Of a stretch of 12,751 nt of DNA, positions 510 through 9,552 are shown piece after piece. The DNA is from a virus. Taxonomy: Duplodnaviria; Heunggongvirae; Uroviricota; Caudoviricetes. Below the pieces are notes generated by a model, which did no database searches, was not told the DNA's origin, and saw only the letters and a list, made by a program, of their open reading frames with translations. The stretch lies in the IMG/VR virus record IMGVR_UViG_2778261068_000001, positions 1 to 12,751 of that record. The stretch is one strand, 5' to 3'. Within the stretch, counting starts at the first letter, position 1; the number at the start of each line of letters is the position of its first letter. A program made the translations under genes and the position numbers.

Positions 510-3500
510 TCAACGGATACTGATGCCGGAAGCCGCTTTTTTGGTCACAATCACCGTACAGTCGGTGATATTGCCTGCCCCCTGATTGCCTTTCTGGAAA
601 ATCTTAAACTCCAGAGTGACGCTTCCCCTGCCACCCGGCATATCAATAACCGCACTGTAACTACCGGGAATGGCCCCTTTAGTTTCTCTGGATGCGATTA
701 ATACGCCGTTTTTGCGAACTTCAAATCCATAACCCGTGTACCTTGTACCTCCCGGGTTATTACCACTTCCCGGATCGGTATACGCTATACCGTTAAAGAT
801 AATGGGCGGGATAATAATCTGACGGTCAAAGTTATGATCATCGCTGATGGTGACGGTAACCGTCCCGTCTGGCGTTTCCGTGTTACCCCACGTACCGACT
901 TTTTTCGGGAAGGCTTTTGATACAGCTTTAACGAAATCCCCTCTGACCTGGGTCGCCTCCAGCATGCCCTTAATCGTACAGTTCTCACTTATCGTGACAT
1001 TGTTGAGCGTTCCTGAGTTCGCATTCACGTTACCGCTGATATCAGCGTTTTTCGCCGTCAGCCGCCCGTCCGGTGTCAGGGAAAATGCCGGAGGATTGCC
1101 GCCGCTGGTGATGGTCGGGGCCGTCAGGCGTTTCAGGAACACGTCGTTCATGAATATCTGATCGCCCTGACCAACAAACATTGGTCGTGTGTTGCCATTA
1201 GACGGATCAATAAACGCGATACGGTTAGCGGCAACCAGAAACTGGCTCAGTTTGCCTTCCTCTGTATCCTCCATGCTGAGGCCAATACCCGCGACATAAT
1301 GCTTACCGTCTTTGGTCTGCTCAATTTTGACGCCCCACATGGCGTTCCATTTATCGTTAGCGTCCTTCCACTCTTTCGAAAACTCCTCCAGTCTGCTGGC
1401 GTTATCTTCCGTCAGCTCGACTTTTTCCAGCAGCTCCTTGCCGAGATGGGATTCGGTTATCTGGCCTTTGAAAAAATCCAGGTAACCTTCCGCATCATCG
1501 CTCGCCTGACCGACAGCCTCCACGAATGCCGATTTGCCAACGGTGTTCACGCTGCGGATATAAAAGTAATAATCATGGCCCGGTTTGATATTGCTACTGC
1601 CGGCTATCCAGTACAGCGCCGTACCAAGATAACGCGCGCTGGTTTCAACCTGCCTGATATCGGCAATCCGCTTTTCCGAGAACCAGAACTCAAACTGCAC
1701 CGTCGGGTCATATACAGCCAGTTTCGGGACCGCCGTTATCTGAAAATACCCCGGTATCAGTTCAATAGTGACAGGCGCTGCAGGTGCGGCAATCCTGAAC
1801 GATACCGACGCCGGGTCGCCCTGCTGTCCCCACGCATTTACCGCCCGGACTGTCAGCCTGTAGTTCCCTGGCGCCAGTTGCCTGAAGCGGTATGTGGTTT
1901 CCGTCGTCCGGGCCGTGCTGACCAGCCGCTCACTGCCGTCGTCTGCTGCCACAGTCAGGCGAAGCATAAAGCTCACCCCCTTCACCACCTTCGGCGTGTC
2001 CCAGCGGGCCAGCACCTGATACTCCCCGCTGTCTGCCGAGACTTCGGCGGTCAGGTGCTGCACTGCTGGCGGCGTGACACCATTCACCGTGCCGCTCTGG
2101 TCGCCGTCAAAGTGCGCCCCGTTATCCACGATGGCCTCTTTCTCCGGCACATGCTGCACGGCGGTGATGGCATACGTGCCGTCGTCGTTCTCACGGATAC
2201 TCACGCAGCGGAACAGGCGCTGGCGCAGCGTCGGCAGCTTCAGCCCCCACACGCTGTATCCGGCAACGCCGTCAGGGATACGGTTCACTTTCACCTGCAC
2301 GCCGTCGGTGACGGACTGGACCTCCACGCTGACCGGATTGCCACTTCCGTCAACCAGGCTTATCAGCGTGGTACCGGAGGATGGCAGCGTGATTTCACGG
2401 TCGAGCGTCAGCGTCCGGGTCTGGCTGTTCACCGCCAGTACGCGCCCGCCGGTGCTGATACCGGCATAGTCATCATCGCAGATTTCAATAACATCACCCG
2501 GCACATGGCGAAGCCCTTCTGCACCCACGCTGAAGTCCACGGTCTGCGTTTCCAGCAGTTCCGTTTTAATCAGCCACAGCCCGGCTCGGTGTGCCTGCCC
2601 CCGGCTGGTACAGCCAAAGGCATCCATCTTCGTGACGTTACGACCGTAACGGGCAATGGCCTGCGTGTCCTCCACAAGCTCTGTTGCCGTCTCCCAGCCG
2701 TTGTTCGGGTCAATCCAGTTCACCTCAACGGCATTATGGCGGTCCTTCAGGGCGCTGAAGCTGTAGCGGAACGGCGCGCCATCATCCGGCATCACCACAT
2801 TACTGCGGTTATAGGTCCACACCTTATCCGACGGCCGGTCCTGCACGAACGTCAGCGTCTGCCCGTTCCATACCGGCATACAGCGCATCGCCGAGCAGAA
2901 ATCACTGAGCACATCCCACGCCTTACGTTGTGTGGTCAGGTAAGCGTTACAGGTGATGCGCGGCTCCGTACCGCCAGAGCCGTCCGGCACCGACTGGTCG
3001 CAATTCTGGCCGATGACATACAGCGCCCATTTGTCCACATCCGCCGCACCGAGACGTTTCCCCATGCCGTAGCGCGGGTGGGTCAGCATATCCCACAGAC
3101 ACCATGCCATGTTGTTGCTGTATGCCGGTTTAAACGTCCCGTCCCAGATACCGCTGTATTGCCGCGTCTGCGGGTTATAATTCGACGGCACCTGCAGAAT
3201 ACGCCCGCGAAGATGATAATTACGGCTCACCTGCTGGCTGCCGAACTGCTCCGAATCCACCTGCACGCCGACCAGTGCCGTGTTCGGGTAGCACTGTTTC
3301 ACATCGATGATTTCGGTGTATGACGACCAGAGCGTTTTGTTCTGCAGCTGGTCTGTGGTGCTGTCCGGCGTCATCCTGCGCATCCGGATATTGAACGGTC
3401 GCGGCGGCAGGTTATCCACCACCACCGAGGCCAGATACTGCGAGGTGGTTTTGCCCTTAATGGTGATGTCTTTTTCCGTCACCCAGCCACCATTACGTTG

Positions 3501-3923
3501 TATCTGAACCAGCAGGCGAACTTCCGACGGATTCCGGTCCCCCTTTGAAGTGGTTTCCACCAGTGCCTGCACACCGAAGGTCAGGCGCAGACGGTCGATG
3601 TTTGCCGACGTGATGGTCCGGGTGAGCGGATTGTCATATTTTAATTCTGCACCGATAACGGTTTCTGAACCGGAGGATTCAAATCCCTCCGGAGGTGTCT
3701 GCTCCTGCTCACCTGCCCGGAACACCACCGTGACACCGGAGATATTGGTATTCCCCTCACTGTCCAGCACCGGCGTACTGTTCAGCAGCACACTTTTTAA
3801 TCCGTCCACCGGACCTTCAATCGGCCCTTCACTGATGGCGTCTATCACGCTCAGCAGCTGGGATGATTTCAGGTTGTCCTTCGCTTCGCGCGGGGTATGC
3901 CCCTTACTGCTGCCTTTACCCAT
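510..3923 (-). CDS. J: Central tail fibre / host specificity protein J (1137 aa)
   Basis: N-terminus [20 protein letters not shown]... and most of the length match lambda gpJ (about 1130 aa) from memory. Correct position at the end of the M-L-K-I-J tail tip block. The last ~150 aa diverge from lambda. GAGGA sits directly against the ATG. Confidence 0.95.
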
Positions 3924-3937
3924 TCCTCACGCTCCAG

Positions 3938-3964
3938 AAACGACAAAACCGCCCTGAGGCGGTT
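3938..3964 (-). terminator. Terminator-like hairpin between I and J
   Basis: Minus strand AACCGCC-TCAG-GGCGGTT (plus 3947-3964) followed by TTTTGTCGTTTC. Lies between the I stop (3984-3986) and the J start (3923). Confidence 0.45.
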
Positions 3965-3983
3965 TCACACAAAACATTTTGCA

Positions 3984-4631
3984 TCAGCGACCAATCACCA
4001 CAACCTGACCACCGTCCCCCTCGTCTGCCGTGCTGATCTCCTGAGAGACAACACGTGACCCCACGCGCATTTCACCGTACAGAACAGGCAGAACATTGCC
4101 CTGGGCAACCATATTGTCCAGTGACGAGAAATATGTGTTCTGCTTACCGTTATCCGTTGTTTGTGTGCGGGGAGTTCTGGGTTTAGGGGCCAGCATCTGC
4201 GCCACACCACCCAGGATCATACTGGCCCCTGCCGCATACATGCCCGATAAAGCCGCGGCACCCAACCAACCTGCGGGGTTCCACCATGCCACCGCAATCA
4301 GCGCCGCCCCCAGCACGGCCTGAAAAAGACCGCCACTTTTGGCTCCCGCCAGACGCGGCACAATGTGGATTACGGCACCATTTGCCAGCGGTTCATTAAG
4401 ACGGGCTGATAATTCAGTTTCACCTGTATCACGCCCGGCAATGCGTACCTGATACCAGCCGTCGCTCAGTTTCTGACGAAACGCCGGAAGCTGTGTGGTC
4501 AGCGCCCGGATGGCTTCAGCCCCCGTTTTCACACGAAGGTCGATGCGGCGGCCAAATCGTTGTAAATCCCCGTAAAGGCAGATGCGTGCCATGCCCGGTG
4601 ACGCCAGAAGGAGTGTGTGCGTCGCTGCCAT
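3984..4631 (-). CDS. I: Tail tip assembly protein I (215 aa)
   Basis: MAATHTLLLASPGMARICLYGDLQRFGRRIDLRVKTGAEAIRAL... and the C-terminus ...QTTDNGKQNTYFSSLDNMVAQGNVLPVLYGEMRVGSRVVSQEISTADEGDGGQVVVIGR match lambda gpI from memory. Overlaps the 3' end of K by 103 nt, as in lambda. Confidence 0.9.
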   Translation of the reverse strand: MAATHTLLLASPGMARICLYGDLQRFGRRIDLRVKTGAEAIRALTTQLPAFRQKLSDGWYQVRIAGRDTGETELSARLNEPLANGAVIHIVPRLAGAKSGGLFQAVLGAALIAVAWWNPAGWLGAAALSGMYAAGASMILGGVAQMLAPKPRTPRTQTTDNGKQNTYFSSLDNMVAQGNVLPVLYGEMRVGSRVVSQEISTADEGDGGQVVVIGR

Positions 4632-5272
4632 TTGTCGGTATACCTCTCTCGTTTGCTCAGTTGTTCAGGAATATGGTGCAGCAGCTCGCCGTCACCACAG
4701 TAAATGGCGGCATGATTCGGCACAGATGAACCAAAACAGCACAGCAGCACATCGCCCGGCTGCACCGCTGACAACGGTACCTGATACAGCCCTGTGGCCT
4801 CCAGATTATCCAGATAGAGATTCTGACCGTTACGCCACCAGTCATCCCCGCGGTGAAAATCCGGCATCTCAATTCCCGCCAGATGGTAAGCGTCCCGGAA
4901 CAGCGTGTAACAGTCCGTCACCCCGTGTTCAAAGCGCCGCCCGGTAAGATGTGGCACACAGCGGAACTTGTGAATCTCACCCCGGCAGACCAGCCACCAC
5001 GGCAAATCACTCTGCACCTGCAGCCGCCGGTCAGCCTCACTCAGCCAGGGCAGACCACCGGGGTGGCTGTGGACCAGCGCCACAATCTCACCCTGCATTT
5101 CTGCCTGCAGCCAGTCCTCCGGCGACAGCCTGAAATAATCCTCCGGCTCACCGGAGATATTCACGCAGGGAAAATATCTTTCCCCCTCCGGTGTTCTTAC
5201 CACGAAGCCGCACGACTCCGCTGGCGCACATCGCCGGGCGTGCGCCAGAATCGCTGATTCTGTTTCTGTCAT
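4529..5272 (-). CDS. K: Tail tip assembly protein K (247 aa) with MPN/JAMM and NlpC/P60 motifs
   Basis: Start taken at the ATG at 5272-5270 (MTETESAILAHARRCAPAESCGFVV...), 2 nt after the L stop codon. JAMM motif HxHx7Sx2D is present as HSHPGGLPWLSEAD. The C-terminal half carries a Cys (GVTDCYTLF) and a His (VPNHAAIY) consistent with an NlpC/P60 fold. The ORF track's extension to 5347 overlaps L and has no support. Confidence 0.85.
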   Translation of the reverse strand: MTETESAILAHARRCAPAESCGFVVRTPEGERYFPCVNISGEPEDYFRLSPEDWLQAEMQGEIVALVHSHPGGLPWLSEADRRLQVQSDLPWWLVCRGEIHKFRCVPHLTGRRFEHGVTDCYTLFRDAYHLAGIEMPDFHRGDDWWRNGQNLYLDNLEATGLYQVPLSAVQPGDVLLCCFGSSVPNHAAIYCGDGELLHHIPEQLSKRERYTDKWQRRTHSFWRHRAWHASAFTGIYNDLAAASTFV

Positions 5273-5276
5273 GGGT

Positions 5277-5975
5277 TTACTGCGAAAGTTTGTTGATGGA
5301 AAGGTAGCCGCCAAAGTTACCGAGGTTATTGCGAAACTTACAGCCACTCAGGCATTTGCTGCATTTATCCTTCGTGATATCGGACGTCGGCTGGTCATAT
5401 TCATCCGCGACAGCCGGACCGTTATAACCGCACTCATCACCGCGATAGGTCCAGGTGCAGGTGTTGGCCAGCATGATACGTCCCGGAAAAACAGCGCCAT
5501 CCGTTTCCGTCGGCGTGGACAGTACAAAGGAGGCACTCACCGCGCTCAGTTCGCTGCACTGCTCGATGCGCCAGCGGCTGATCACCTCCTGCTCCGGGTC
5601 TGCCTCGATGTTTCCGTTGACGAAGTTCACCGCATCCAGAAAACGGGCGTAAACCTTACGCCGAACCACCGTTCCGCCGACCAGACTCTGCATATCTTCC
5701 ACCATCCCGGTGACCATGCCGTGCAGATTAGAGACTTTCAGAGTTGGCCTGGCGCTGGCTCCTTTACCGTTCATCTCAAATCCGCTCCCCTGAATGGGGT
5801 ACGCCTGATACTGTCGCCCCTGCCAGGTGACCGGCTCACCTTTTTCGTTCTGCTCATTACAGAAAAAATAACGCTCTCCGCCGACTTCTGTCAGATCGAC
5901 TTCCCAGAGCACGACCAGCGCGGATTGCTCCGCTTTTGTACACTCATTCAGTGTTTCCTGCTGTATATCCTGCAT
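5277..5975 (-). CDS. L: Tail tip protein L (232 aa)
   Basis: MQDIQQETLNECTKAEQSALVVLWEVDLTEVGGERYFFCNEQNEKGEPVTWQGRQYQAYPIQGSGFEMNGKG... matches lambda gpL in sequence and in length. Has the C-terminal cysteine cluster (C..C...CSKCLSGC). Its ATG overlaps the M stop codon (ATGA). Confidence 0.9.
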   Translation of the reverse strand: MQDIQQETLNECTKAEQSALVVLWEVDLTEVGGERYFFCNEQNEKGEPVTWQGRQYQAYPIQGSGFEMNGKGASARPTLKVSNLHGMVTGMVEDMQSLVGGTVVRRKVYARFLDAVNFVNGNIEADPEQEVISRWRIEQCSELSAVSASFVLSTPTETDGAVFPGRIMLANTCTWTYRGDECGYNGPAVADEYDQPTSDITKDKCSKCLSGCKFRNNLGNFGGYLSINKLSQ

Positions 5976-6316
5976 CAGTGAGTGACCTCTTCAAAGGTAC
6001 AGTTAAAATCGGTATACATGGCATTATCCGAAATACTCCACTCCCTGCAGACAACCCGGACGGTTCTGTTGTGTTTTGGCGGACGCCACAAAAAAGCACG
6101 TATCCCGGCATGACGGGATAAAAAACTGTCCAGCGCAGCACGGGAATATTCATCTGTGACACGAAACACCGGTTTAAACGTTTTCAGATCCGCATTCAGA
6201 CCACCAGCCCGTCGCTGTTCATATCCGTCACCGAACTTTACCGTAATAACAGATGGCTTTCGTGTCGTCTCCATCCCCTCGCGGGGGATCCAGTTAAAAA
6301 CTTCAGGCTCAGGCAC
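5975..6316 (-). CDS. M: Tail tip protein M (113 aa from a GTG start)
   Basis: FGDGYEQRRAGGLNADLKTF...FLWRPPKHNRTVRVVCREWS resembles lambda gpM. I prefer the GTG start at 6316-6314 because GGAGGA lies 8 nt upstream and the resulting length matches lambda M. The track's TTG start at 6373 overlaps H by 65 nt. The alternative ATG at 6274 would give 99 aa. Confidence 0.75.
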   Translation of the reverse strand: MPEPEVFNWIPREGMETTRKPSVITVKFGDGYEQRRAGGLNADLKTFKPVFRVTDEYSRAALDSFLSRHAGIRAFLWRPPKHNRTVRVVCREWSISDNAMYTDFNCTFEEVTH

Positions 6317-9300
6317 TGTATAATCCTCCGTCCCGACGTGATGACTGCATAATTGACACAACCCTGCTGTCAATCAGATCCGCCAGCCCCCTGGCTGACT
6401 GCGTATCTATCTCGCCATTGCTCCCTTTATTCTGAATACTGATGTGATACACAGGAGAATAGACAAATCCGCCGCCACCATTCACATTGCCAATGGCTCT
6501 GACCCCAAGAGAGCCGTCCGCTGCCCGCGTCAGTGGCATGATAGCTTCAGGCCCGGCCTCGCCCATCAGTCCGGCACCTTTCGCAAAAGCAAAATACGTC
6601 GGCGTATCCACAATGGTGTTACTGTAAGCACTCAGATTTGCCGATGTGTAAACACCACCTTTTGCGTTTGCCACTGCCCCCGAAATCCATCCGCCTACCG
6701 TACCAAACCACCCTCCGGCGCCGGAGAGTGATTTCAGTCCGTTAACAATGGCCGCATTCATCAGAATTTTTGAAACTTCCTGGAGAACTGAACTCCCCCA
6801 GTTCCTCCAGTCCACAACATTCCCGGCCAGTGCATCGGAAATATTTGATACCAGCCCGTCCATGGTGGAAACGACAGCATCTGCCGCCAGTGAAGCATAA
6901 TCGGTGGCGCTGTCTGCCCAGTTGGTCAGTCCCTCCTGGAGTCCGGCATTCCAGTTATTACGTAAAGCATCGGCCTTTGCATAATAATCCTGCTGATCGC
7001 TGAGACGCTCTTCCAGATATTTTTTATTCAGTTCTTTCTCCTGTTTCCACAGGGCTTCTTCAATTTCTCCGGTCTGATACTGCCTCAGGAGTTCGTTATT
7101 TTTCTGCTCAAATGCCTGCCGGATACTCCACATTTCCTGGAGTCGTTCACGCATCCGTGAGCCTTCACCATATCCCAGCAACTGCGCATCGTTAGACGCC
7201 CGGGCACTGGCATTACTGTCCGCCAGGCTGCTTTCATAAGCAGCAAGCTGCTCACGAATCTTTTTCTGGTCAATGAGTGCCGCATTCTGTAAAAGCGTTT
7301 TTTTCTGCGCTTCTGACAGAGTTGATAATTCGCCCTGACTGATCTGATACTTCATCCTGGCCAGTTCAGTATTCTGCCCTGCCAGTGCTATTTGTTCTTT
7401 TTGCTGTTTAATCAGCCGTTTATAAATATCTTCTGTTTTTTCCGCTTCGGTCTTTTTATGTGTTTTAGGTTTATTTGCCTGGTTATTTCGCCAGGCATCC
7501 AGTGAGTTATTGATATAATTCTGTCTGGCTGCCTGATACGCCTCTCCCACAAAGCCGAGATCATCCGCAGCATAACCCAGGCGGGCACGCTCACGGGCTT
7601 CCCCCTTCAGGCGGGACAGAGCCAGTTCACGCTCGCTATTATTCAGCGCAGTCTGCTGTTTATCATCCAGAATGGCCTGTGGCAGCCGTAATGGTACATT
7701 CACCAGCCCCTGACGCTGCTGAAGTAACTCATTACCAAGCCCGAGAAGACGATTAAACTCGGTATGCTGCCCATTCATGATCAACAGGGACTGATACGCT
7801 TTGTTTTGTTCTGCCGCCTGTTGACGGATTAACGCCACCCGTCGCTCCTCCAGCCCGGCAAGCACATCCTGAATGGATTGCGCTTTGCCCTGCATTTGAG
7901 TGAGGCGAGACTGTTCAACTGCCAGTTGATTTGTTGCTTCTGCAAGCCCTTCTGTGACAGTTTTTACCGACGTCATGTGGTTAATCATAAAACCGTTATC
8001 GGTTGTCCAGCCCGGGTTTGCCAGCACATACTGATAGCCAGCAATTTTTTCCTGTAAGGATTTAATCTTACTTTTCTGCTCGTCAATTAACCTGTTCTGC
8101 TCCTTCAGTGCCTGCCGCGTCTTTTCTTCATTATCTGACGTTTCAGGAAGCGACATTGCCGACGTTTTCTGGCGAATTTCGTCGATTGTTGCGGCATACT
8201 GGCGTGCAGATTCTCTGGCCTGCTCCTGATTCTGATACATCGTGTACCAGGCCGTCGCTCCCAGCATGACGAGCCCCGGCACACCACCAACCAGCCCCAG
8301 CGCACCACTTAACAGACGACTCCCCACTGACGTGACAGTATTCAGTGTTGTCTGTGCTGCTGTTCTGGCCGCAATATTACGGGTAAGTGACGCCTGGGCA
8401 ACTGTCAGCTTCGCTTCTGCGGCTGCCTGCCTTTCGGTACCGCGAGCAGCAACAACCGCCTGTTGCGCACGATAAACCGCCGCACGCGCCCTGGCGGTTG
8501 CTATCTGTGTCCCCCGAAGTTGCGCTTCCGCAAGAGCCACTTCGTTTCTGGCTGCAGTAATTAATCCGGCAGTTGCAGATCCTGCAGAAGACGCCATATT
8601 GCCAAAATATCGGGCTACCCCGACGGCAACCAGAGCACCGGCAGCGGTTGCCACGGTGTCAATATTGCCTGCAATACCATTCAGCACACCGGAGAGCGTC
8701 TTCGTCACTCCGCTTGCCTCGTTCGCACCACCAACCCAGGCCATAAAGGCGTTTTCAACTTTGGTTGCAGAGGATGAAACCGTATCAGGCATTGCCGCAT
8801 ATTCATCACGTAATGCCCCAAGCTGACTAATCAGTGCAGGAACAACCTTATCGGCGGTCAGTTTTCCGTTATCCGCCATGGCCTTCAGATCCTTACGGGC
8901 AACACCCATTCCCGCAGCCAGCGCACGAATAACACGATCGCCGTTCTCATTCACCGAGTTAAACTCTTCACCGCGCAGCACTCCCTGCGCCAGTGCCTGA
9001 CTGAACTGCGTGATCACCGAACTGGCTTCTGCTGTACTGGCACCGGATAATTTCAGCCCCGTGGAGATCGCCTCGGTGACTTTCAGTACCTCCTCAGAAC
9101 TGTAACCATACTCCCGCATGGAAGCTGCAGAGCGGGCAAAAAGGCTGGCGTTATCAGAAAACGCCGTTCCCGTTCTCTGGCTGATTGCCATTAATTCACG
9201 TTGTGATACCTGAAAATCATCACTGGACTTTGAAGCCTGCTTCAGACGGGCATTTACTGAATTCCACTCATCGGCGAGAGAAATAAGATGACCGGTAGCA

Positions 9301-9542
9301 AAAGCTCCGGCAAATGCCCCCGCCATATTCAGTGCCGAAGATTTAGCTGTATTTATCTGATCCGTCACTTCTGCCAGTGCACGCCGCATTTCACGGGATG
9401 CAGCAGCGGACTGCCGGCCTCCGTTCTGCATGGTACGGTAGTAATCCTGCCCCATACGCGAAGCCCGGGAGATCTCTGACTGGAATGACCGGGAATTTGC
9501 CGAGATTTTAATAATCAGTTCACGTAATGTCGCCACACTCAT
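6309..9542 (-). CDS. H: Tail tape measure protein, gpH-like (1077 aa)
   Basis: Correct position between G-T and M. The C-terminus (...YSNTIVDTPTYFAFAKGAGLMGEAGPEAIMPLTRAADGS...) resembles lambda gpH. Has a long Ala/Gln/Glu/Lys-rich coiled-coil middle and a Gly-rich hydrophobic segment (LLSGALGLVGGVPGLVMLGATAWY). The only in-frame start is the ATG at 9542, because an in-frame stop lies 11 codons upstream. Confidence 0.9.
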   Translation of the reverse strand: MSVATLRELIIKISANSRSFQSEISRASRMGQDYYRTMQNGGRQSAAASREMRRALAEVTDQINTAKSSALNMAGAFAGAFATGHLISLADEWNSVNARLKQASKSSDDFQVSQRELMAISQRTGTAFSDNASLFARSAASMREYGYSSEEVLKVTEAISTGLKLSGASTAEASSVITQFSQALAQGVLRGEEFNSVNENGDRVIRALAAGMGVARKDLKAMADNGKLTADKVVPALISQLGALRDEYAAMPDTVSSSATKVENAFMAWVGGANEASGVTKTLSGVLNGIAGNIDTVATAAGALVAVGVARYFGNMASSAGSATAGLITAARNEVALAEAQLRGTQIATARARAAVYRAQQAVVAARGTERQAAAEAKLTVAQASLTRNIAARTAAQTTLNTVTSVGSRLLSGALGLVGGVPGLVMLGATAWYTMYQNQEQARESARQYAATIDEIRQKTSAMSLPETSDNEEKTRQALKEQNRLIDEQKSKIKSLQEKIAGYQYVLANPGWTTDNGFMINHMTSVKTVTEGLAEATNQLAVEQSRLTQMQGKAQSIQDVLAGLEERRVALIRQQAAEQNKAYQSLLIMNGQHTEFNRLLGLGNELLQQRQGLVNVPLRLPQAILDDKQQTALNNSERELALSRLKGEARERARLGYAADDLGFVGEAYQAARQNYINNSLDAWRNNQANKPKTHKKTEAEKTEDIYKRLIKQQKEQIALAGQNTELARMKYQISQGELSTLSEAQKKTLLQNAALIDQKKIREQLAAYESSLADSNASARASNDAQLLGYGEGSRMRERLQEMWSIRQAFEQKNNELLRQYQTGEIEEALWKQEKELNKKYLEERLSDQQDYYAKADALRNNWNAGLQEGLTNWADSATDYASLAADAVVSTMDGLVSNISDALAGNVVDWRNWGSSVLQEVSKILMNAAIVNGLKSLSGAGGWFGTVGGWISGAVANAKGGVYTSANLSAYSNTIVDTPTYFAFAKGAGLMGEAGPEAIMPLTRAADGSLGVRAIGNVNGGGGFVYSPVYHISIQNKGSNGEIDTQSARGLADLIDSRVVSIMQSSRRDGGLYSA

Positions 9543-9552
9543 TCTCCGGACG

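Follow-up and report, generated by a model that had tools for sequence, protein, structure and literature searches.

The window analysed here, a 12,751-nt stretch of tailed-phage DNA (IMG/VR record IMGVR_UViG_2778261068_000001), carries on its minus strand a long open reading frame that an earlier note had read as a tape measure protein exceeding lambda H by about 220 aa, with an AT-rich middle acquired either by recombination or by internal expansion. The frame (6309..9542) spans 1077 codons from ATG 9542, against 853 aa for lambda H (NP_040595.1); both the tape measure assignment and the length difference, 224 aa in all, stand. The question raised by the locus is whether this excess length records an event in the history of this phage. 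Our analysis leaves little doubt that the ORF encodes a tail length tape measure protein of the HK97 type, ordinary and full-length, that it belongs to the tail module of a prophage resembling HK97 (Hendrixvirinae-type) and residing in Escherichia coli or a closely related bacterium, and that its excess in length over lambda H is ancestral to the HK97 family.

Delineation of the gene and its surroundings placed it in a typical tail operon. The open reading frame, its PHROG 339 match and its identity to HK97 gp16 together define the gene, although Shine-Dalgarno spacing favours GTG 9536 as the probable start, yielding 1075 aa; the genes of relatives are annotated from a GTG start with this same length, and those annotated in E. 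coli phages share 96.5% DNA identity with the window gene. A terminator-like hairpin followed by T8 (9559..9574, minus strand) lies just upstream, at a place equivalent to that of a putative terminator annotated in HK97. It is preceded by a tail assembly chaperone pair (9583..10271, minus strand) made up of a G-like (9885-10271) and a T-like (9583-9873) gene, annotated in relatives as "tail assembly chaperone" and "tail assembly protein T". The pair contains an A8 slippery run (9889-9896) that, judging from the sequence and the frame relation, would serve a -1 frameshift, and a -1 frameshift product is annotated at the HK97 chaperone genes. Based on the ORF list and the annotation of relatives, the order in the window is G/T chaperones, tape measure gene, M, L, K, I and J, with the tape measure gene sitting after the frameshifted G/GT pair and before the M-L-K-I-J tip genes. 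The major tail tube protein (10271..10975, minus strand) is also of the HK97 gp12 type, with 234 aa, the same length as HK97 gp12, and 72% identity to it; its match to lambda V is only marginal (E 0.006). At least 80% of the window is present in 885 complete E. coli genomes.

The domain architecture of the protein identifies the family. An N-terminal tape measure domain (Pfam TMP_3, residues 85-274; 8721..9290, minus strand; E 1e-57) is followed by the central HK97-family domain PF06120, Phage_HK97_TLTM (residues 397-688; 7479..8354, minus strand; E 3.8e-94), which scores 315.7 bits against a Pfam gathering cut-off of 24 and covers profile positions 1-292 of 295, and by a Tape_meas_lam_C motif (residues 863-934; 6741..6956, minus strand; Pfam E 1.7e-12; 47.7 bits against a cut-off of 23). 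The same three domains occur in the same order in HK97 gp16 (NP_037710.1, 1089 aa), at residues 83-272, 409-673 and 855-926, respectively. The two proteins are collinear over their full length, with BLASTP returning one alignment (residues 3-1077 on 1-1084, 55% identity), and residues 1-1074 align to positions 1-1114 of the 1123 in PHROG 339, "tail length tape measure protein". Lengths among the family members compared range from 1075 to 1154 aa, putting the window protein at the short end. The HK97-type family is already known, with hundreds of E. coli prophages carrying it, and a tblastn search with residues 1-320, the part bearing TMP_3, retrieved 1006 phage records from many genera. The protein also contains a hydrophobic, membrane-span-like segment (residues 409-433, LLSGALGLVGGVPGLVMLGATAWYT; 8244..8318, minus strand; Kyte-Doolittle 19-residue mean above 1.4), which was also aligned within the solved tape measure chain 8rk3_A.

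Lambda gpH resembles the window protein in its role, in its place in the tail operon and in a homologous C-terminal region of about 320 residues that includes Tape_meas_lam_C, but differs in having an N-terminal TMP_2 instead of TMP_3 and in being devoid of PF06120. TMP_2 (PF06791), which matches lambda H at 2.4e-69, gave no match in the window protein even at E values up to 10. Homology to lambda H was detected by BLASTP over residues 755-1076 (on 510-849, 26% identity, E 4e-21), by hhalign with a six-sequence profile over residues 759-958 only (probability 98.7) and, for the lambda tape measure protein in PDB entry 8iyk_H, over residues 753-1076 (E 4.5e-16), and PHROG 24, of the lambda gpH type, matches residues 639-1076 only. 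Upstream of residue 755, BLASTP, hhalign and Smith-Waterman alignment with shuffle controls found no significant alignment to lambda H (z = 1.8 for residues 1-755 against lambda 1-510). An inserted block thus cannot be placed by alignment to lambda H, and the comparison with both reference proteins, which the earlier note had expected to locate such a block, yielded collinearity with HK97 gp16 instead. Lambda gpH-type identity was rejected for this protein, which has lam_C but neither TMP_2 nor a full-length alignment to gpH. Two possible pairings of hydrophobic segments (residues 409-433 or 73-93 of the window protein with lambda 117-140) reached only z = 1.6-1.8, and neither was used. Separately, PHROG 339 also matches lambda H, with residues 119-849 on profile positions 435-1116, a match whose score probably comes mostly from the C-terminus and which hints at possible collinearity downstream of the hydrophobic segment.

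According to the Pfam landmarks alone, the N-terminal domain and lam_C are separated by 588 aa in the window protein and by 370 aa in lambda H. Together with the real length gap and a lower mid-gene GC content, this excess is what could be adduced for a lambda-H-like protein that gained about 220 aa through the insertion of AT-rich foreign DNA or the duplication of a coiled-coil core. Such a gain is largely refuted and, in our assessment, highly improbable: the middle of the protein is a curated HK97-family Pfam domain common to all relatives, the N-terminal 750 residues are unalignable with lambda H, which makes lambda H the wrong reference, and the composition and repeat analyses described below argue against it as well. 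The 588 versus 370 aa excess distinguishes two old families from each other and does not record an event in this phage.

The base composition of the middle had been the main argument for foreign origin. The two 60-nt counts on which it relied, 32% GC at 7381-7440 and 63% at 8401-8460, are accurate (31.7% and 63.3%), but are extremes, one coding for KTEDIYKRLIKQQKEQIALA and the other for the Ala-rich AVVAARGTERQAAAEAKLTV. Residues 465-865 (6948..8150, minus strand) are rich in Q, K, E and L as described (11.0, 7.5, 10.0 and 12.2%, respectively, 40.7% together), compared with 21.1% for the same four residues in 1-464 and 14.7% in 866-1077. This block has a GC content of 48.0%, its flanks 54.6% and 54.1%. 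The lower GC is hence confirmed and the profile is not uniform, but the dip is modest and confined to the second codon position: GC2 is 0.347 in the block and 0.530 and 0.514 in the flanks, whereas GC1 (0.603 vs 0.606 and 0.575) and GC3 (0.489 vs 0.502 and 0.533) remain steady. Synonymous-codon shuffles within the gene reproduce the dip (block GC 0.487 ± 0.006, with 15% of shuffles at or below the observed value), and observed GC closely follows the GC expected from the amino acid sequence (r = 0.885). Similar dips are seen in HK97 gp16, which falls to 0.41-0.49 mid-gene although its central block is only 22-41% identical, and in lambda H, whose mid-gene region is also A-rich and falls to 0.49-0.55 from 0.61-0.67. 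The mid-gene dip is real, yet no more than the amino acid sequence dictates; because it affects GC2 only, with GC1 and GC3 steady, and is reproduced by shuffling, it reflects amino acid content and not foreign DNA. The low GC of the middle third is a by-product of a sequence rich in Gln, Lys, Glu, Leu and Asn, encoded by codons with A or T at the second position.

The stretch of lowest GC in the gene (residues 676-750; 7293..7517, minus strand) drops to 0.37-0.40 in 50-codon windows, but from residue 701 onwards it forms one of the segments best conserved between the window protein and HK97 gp16 (80% identity over residues 701-740), which argues against a foreign insert. Here GC3 is 0.387 against an expected 0.490, a value reached by 2.9% of shuffles, and a promoter-like match lies on the plus strand at 7322-7351. 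Both observations could be taken to indicate a signal embedded in the patch, for instance a promoter or pause site inside the gene or a short antisense gene, an explanation to which we assign almost no credence. The nominal GC3 dip is not fully explained, but is gone once the choice of window is counted, with the lowest GC3 of any 75-codon window (0.360, found outside the middle, at residues 46-120) lying at the shuffle mean (0.363). Promoter-like matches numbered four against 3.9 expected from shuffles, and terminator matches were likewise at chance level. No Rfam family matched and, apart from the tape measure gene, no ORF of at least 80 aa was found on either strand within 6950-8150, the ORFs of 40-77 aa overlapping this interval being unremarkable.

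Internal duplication or expansion, the second origin put forward for the middle, was rejected on the absence of repeats in both DNA and protein. Tandem Repeats Finder detected no tandem repeats at a score of 30 or above, a direct-repeat search returned only two short chance pairs, and self-BLASTP at word size 2 recovered the self-match only, whether or not composition statistics were applied.

Comparison with named relatives revealed mosaicism. HK97 shares with the window gene the G/GT chaperones and terminator-like hairpin on its 5' side and the M-L-K-I-J genes on its 3' side, but in HK97 the gp15 moron separates the chaperones from the tape measure gene, whereas the window has only about 40 nt at that place. 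Identity to HK97 gp16 is 88% over residues 1-260 and 75% over residues 701-760, but falls to 22-41% in a central block (residues 321-700; 7443..8582, minus strand) that is a different, divergent allele flanked by segments 57-88% identical; the last 140 residues or so are 41% identical. This block spans 380 aa in the window protein and 374 aa in HK97. By contrast, E. coli phages vB_EcoS-689R5, Evi, phi467 and PhiR49_2 and E. coli prophages (e.g. that of AR_0089, WP_094284473.1) present 95-96.5% DNA identity across the gene and 98% protein identity, with scattered substitutions only, a 1075-aa product from GTG and the same neighbouring genes. The tape measure protein of HK544 (1085 aa), of the same family and architecture, is collinear with the window protein at 77% identity; its central block is of the window type (92-97% outside residues 481-540), with an allele of its own at residues 481-540, whereas its C-terminal third is of the HK97 type (98-99% to HK97). 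Those of Stx1- and Stx2-converting phages (1080 aa), again collinear and of the same family and architecture, have a central block 81-85% identical to the window type in Stx1_EH1995, and the Stx-phage proteins fall to 55% identity at residues 761-940. At least three central alleles are therefore represented among the window, HK97 and HK544.

These identity shifts are sharp, falling near residues 260-320 and 690-700 in the comparison with HK97 and near 480, 540 and 760 in that with HK544. They might suggest that residues 321-700 or so were recently imported from a lower-GC donor phage with length roughly kept, and that the composition of the middle is a recombination scar. The narrower distribution of the central block points in the same direction, with tblastn retrieving only 159 records, of lambdoid phages of enterobacteria, against 1006 phage records for the N-terminal domain. 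We nonetheless consider such a recent import very unlikely. The mosaic block does not coincide with the low-GC block (residues 465-865), GC within the gene peaks (0.58-0.61) in the Ala-rich first part of residues 321-700, GC3 is not lowered, being indistinguishable from that of the flanks in this one gene, and the HK97 allele dips likewise. The pattern of alleles shows that recombination does shape the HK97-type gene family, but through the exchange of homologous blocks of near-equal length between its members and not through the insertion of new ones.

As regards the coiled-coil core that the earlier note proposed for residues 465-865, a single-sequence AlphaFold model of low confidence (mean pLDDT 43) places helices over residues 3-960, and not in the middle only, with pLDDT of 74-88 only at about 470-510 and 530-570; a crude home-made heptad score was no better than shuffles. 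The protein would be held by the G/GT chaperones and, based on the family, is probably trimeric and largely helical. In lambda, the tube has 32 rings and gpH is a trimer (PMC5099701, PMC10721106), and the ruler rule, established for lambda and TP901-1, amounts to about 0.15 nm of tail per tape measure residue (PMC5099701). Extended inside the growing gp12-type tube, the window protein may set tail length at that ratio. A tail longer than lambda's, as previously proposed, is indeed expected under this general rule, which predicts for this phage a tail like that of HK97, exceeding lambda's by about 34 nm, or 30-35 nm in round terms, equivalent to about 8 tube rings. By the same analogy, the longer tail would be a property of the whole HK97 group; no published HK97 tail length was found in the literature searched. 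During infection, the protein would leave the tail, with the hydrophobic segment and the C-terminal part presumably helping DNA cross the envelope. The HK97 tape measure is cited as being involved in injection via PtsG and FkpA (bioRxiv 10.1101/2025.12.01.691526).

Together, these results indicate that the gene should be labelled as an HK97-type tape measure protein and not as a lengthened lambda H, with little consequence beyond correct annotation. Its GC dip should not serve as evidence of horizontal acquisition: a dip limited to GC2 in a Lys/Gln/Glu-rich helical protein reflects amino acid content, and GC3 or synonymous-shuffle controls decide the matter quickly. Mosaicism in blocks of near-equal length illustrates a ruler constraint that is known, not new. 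More speculatively, and with the odds clearly against it, central-block alleles might define tape measure classes differing in the periplasmic and inner-membrane factors used for injection (FkpA and PtsG in HK97) or in sensitivity to gp15-type superinfection exclusion, with diversifying selection acting on sequence and the ruler constraint on length. If this were the case, the window, which has no gp15 moron, would carry a specificity class other than that of HK97.

The minus strand of the window carries a contiguous phage tail module. By ORF order, head-tail connector and completion genes (11036-12475) are followed by a tube protein gene encoding 234 aa (10271-10975), two small chaperone ORFs (9885-10271 and 9583-9873), a tape measure ORF of 1077 codons (6309-9542) and, downstream of it, M-, L-, K-, I- and J-like genes (510-6373). 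The G-like chaperone ORF terminates in ...GGTTAAAAAAAAGTAG (9885-9900), and its A8 run (9889-9896) is the conserved G/GT programmed frameshift site of long-tailed phages, where a -1 slip brings the ribosome into the frame of the T-like ORF, whose ATG lies at 9873. HK97 and HK544 harbor the gp15 superinfection-exclusion moron between the T-like ORF and the tape measure gene, whereas this prophage has none and presents a gap of about 40 nt (9543-9582), containing a terminator-like hairpin (9574-9559) with a T8 run just upstream of the tape measure gene; all other promoter- and terminator-like matches were at chance level. No Rfam family matched anywhere in the window, and no credible overlapping ORF was found within 6950-8150. 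The J-like tail tip gene (510-3923), which is GC3-rich (GC3 0.67), contains an antisense open frame of 674 aa (1299-3323, plus strand), probably no more than its shadow ORF.

The tape measure gene is of an already known kind. Its product is matched end to end by PHROG 339 and contains the Pfam domains TMP_3 (residues 85-274, E 1e-57), Phage_HK97_TLTM (PF06120; residues 397-688, E 3.8e-94) and Tape_meas_lam_C (residues 863-934), which HK97 gp16 presents in the same places, whereas lambda H carries TMP_2 and Tape_meas_lam_C. BLASTP returned single collinear alignments with HK97 gp16 (1089 aa, 55% identity) and the HK544 tape measure protein (1085 aa, 77%), but with lambda H only residues 755-1076 aligned (lambda H 510-849, 26% identity, E 4e-21); upstream of residue 755, profile comparison and shuffle-controlled Smith-Waterman revealed no significant similarity to lambda H. 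The tube protein likewise shares 72% identity with HK97 gp12 and bears only a faint relation to lambda V. Its C-terminal third (residues ~150-234) resembles the Ig-like decoration domain of gp12, and an "immunoglobulin domain-containing protein" is annotated among the genes under the match in E. coli relatives. At the DNA level, the tape measure gene shares 95-96.5% identity with annotated counterparts in several E. coli phages. Of 5426 complete E. coli genomes, 885 contain at least 80% of the window, yet none matched its full length at an identity above about 95%. The source is a slightly divergent version of a prophage tail module that is very common, possibly belonging to another Escherichia or Shigella lineage.

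The length of 1077 aa reported in the earlier note is correct for the ORF, as is the 853 aa given for lambda H. The protein itself probably starts at GTG 9536 and spans 1075 aa, because the Shine-Dalgarno GGAG (9547-9544) lies 7 nt from this codon and 1 nt from ATG 9542, and because the close relatives AR_0089 and vB_EcoS-689R5 are annotated from the equivalent GTG. By annotated length, it falls at the short end of its HK97-type family, which comprises close relatives with the GTG start (1075 aa), Stx1_EH1995 (1080), HK544 (1085), HK97 (1089), HK75 (1092), ECP1 (1093), HK446 (1104), Klebsiella ST13-OXA48phi12.4 (1128) and Enterobacter LAU1 (1154). The homologous C-terminal parts of the window protein and lambda H are nearly equal (323 versus 344 aa), and the whole length difference therefore resides upstream, in non-alignable residues (754 versus 509). 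The N-terminal Pfam domains occupy similar offsets (85-274 versus 54-256), and 588 aa separate them from the lam_C motif in the window protein, against 370 aa in lambda H. The proposal that the extra length lies in the middle thus holds by Pfam landmarks, though only loosely, as it takes TMP_2 and TMP_3 to be positional equivalents; the excess sets two old families apart and reflects no event in this phage.

The AT-rich middle that had been put forward as a sign of acquired DNA is real but modest. Both spot counts were exact (31.7% GC at 7381-7440, 63.3% at 8401-8460) and represent extremes, encoding KTEDIYKRLIKQQKEQIALA and the Ala-rich AVVAARGTERQAAAEAKLTV, respectively. Across residues 465-865 (6948-8150) GC is 48.0%, versus 54.6% upstream and 54.1% downstream, and the deficit falls entirely on codon position 2: over residues 1-464, 465-865 and 866-1077, GC2 is 0.530, 0.347 and 0.514, GC1 is 0.606, 0.603 and 0.575, and GC3 is 0.502, 0.489 and 0.533. 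Glutamine, lysine, glutamate and leucine make up 40.7% of the block, versus 21.1% and 14.7% of the upstream and downstream flanks. Observed GC and the GC predicted solely from amino acids correlate along the gene (r = 0.885), synonymous-codon shuffles within the gene yield 0.487 ± 0.006 for the block (15% at or below the observed value), and the minimum GC3 over all 75-codon windows (0.360; shuffle mean 0.363) sits outside mid-gene, at residues 46-120. Mid-gene GC also falls in HK97 gp16 (to 0.41-0.49), despite only 22-41% identity to the window there, and in lambda H, where it goes from 0.61-0.67 to 0.49-0.55 and A is strongly overrepresented. Together, these results demonstrate that the dip is a general consequence of mid-protein amino-acid make-up in these tape measure proteins and carries no signature of foreign origin.

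Recombination within this gene, also invoked in the earlier note, is real and takes the form of familiar lambdoid-phage mosaicism. Identity to HK97 gp16 is 88% over residues 1-260, drops to 41, 22 and 26% over residues 321-480, 481-540 and 541-700, recovers to 75% over 701-760 and is 57% and 41% in the last two segments. The HK544 gene (HK544 4000-7257) is a three-way mosaic with nearly constant block lengths: residues 321-480 and 541-700 carry the window-type allele (92-97%), residues 481-540 a private one (42% to the window, 26% to HK97), and the C-terminal third, from residue 761 on, the HK97-type allele (98-99%). Residues 1-320, which hold TMP_3, were found in 1006 phage records from many genera, and the central block in only 159, from enterobacterial lambdoid phages. 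Block exchanges add no length (block 321-700 is 380 aa in the window, 374 aa in HK97). The boundaries of this exchanged block differ from those of the low-GC block 465-865, and nowhere in the gene is GC higher than in the first part of the exchanged block. Internal expansion or duplication found no support: Tandem Repeats Finder returned nothing scoring 30 or above, a direct-repeat search only two short pairs (17-23 nt) consistent with chance, and self-BLASTP the identity match alone. Insertion into or expansion of a lambda-H-like protein is not supported; the original observation was accurate but modest.

A coiled coil that sets the core apart is at best putative. A poor single-sequence AlphaFold model (mean pLDDT 43, reaching 74-88 only at residues ~470-510 and ~530-570) places helices across residues 3-960, followed by a Gly-rich, non-helical C-terminus, making a helical state plausible for most of the protein. 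Following an Ala-rich helix, residues 409-433 (8244-8318) form a hydrophobic, Gly/Leu/Val-rich span of membrane-span length, which is covered by the alignment with 8rk3_A, a solved tape measure chain of 1158 aa, and may insert into the membrane of the host when DNA is injected. Cumby et al. 2015, as cited in bioRxiv 10.1101/2025.12.01.691526, implicate the HK97 tape measure protein in DNA injection, together with PtsG and FkpA.

Tape measure proteins fix tail length at ~0.15 nm per residue, according to a statement in PMC5099701 citing Katsura, and the lambda tube comprises 32 gpV rings that enclose a trimer of gpH (PMC10721106). Under this ruler rule, 224 extra residues would add ~34 nm of tail relative to lambda, or ~8 rings, making the anticipated tail "about a quarter longer" a reasonable prediction. 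No published HK97 tail length against which to check it was found in the literature searched. The prediction of a longer tail is sound but generic, as it would apply equally to HK97 and all relatives.
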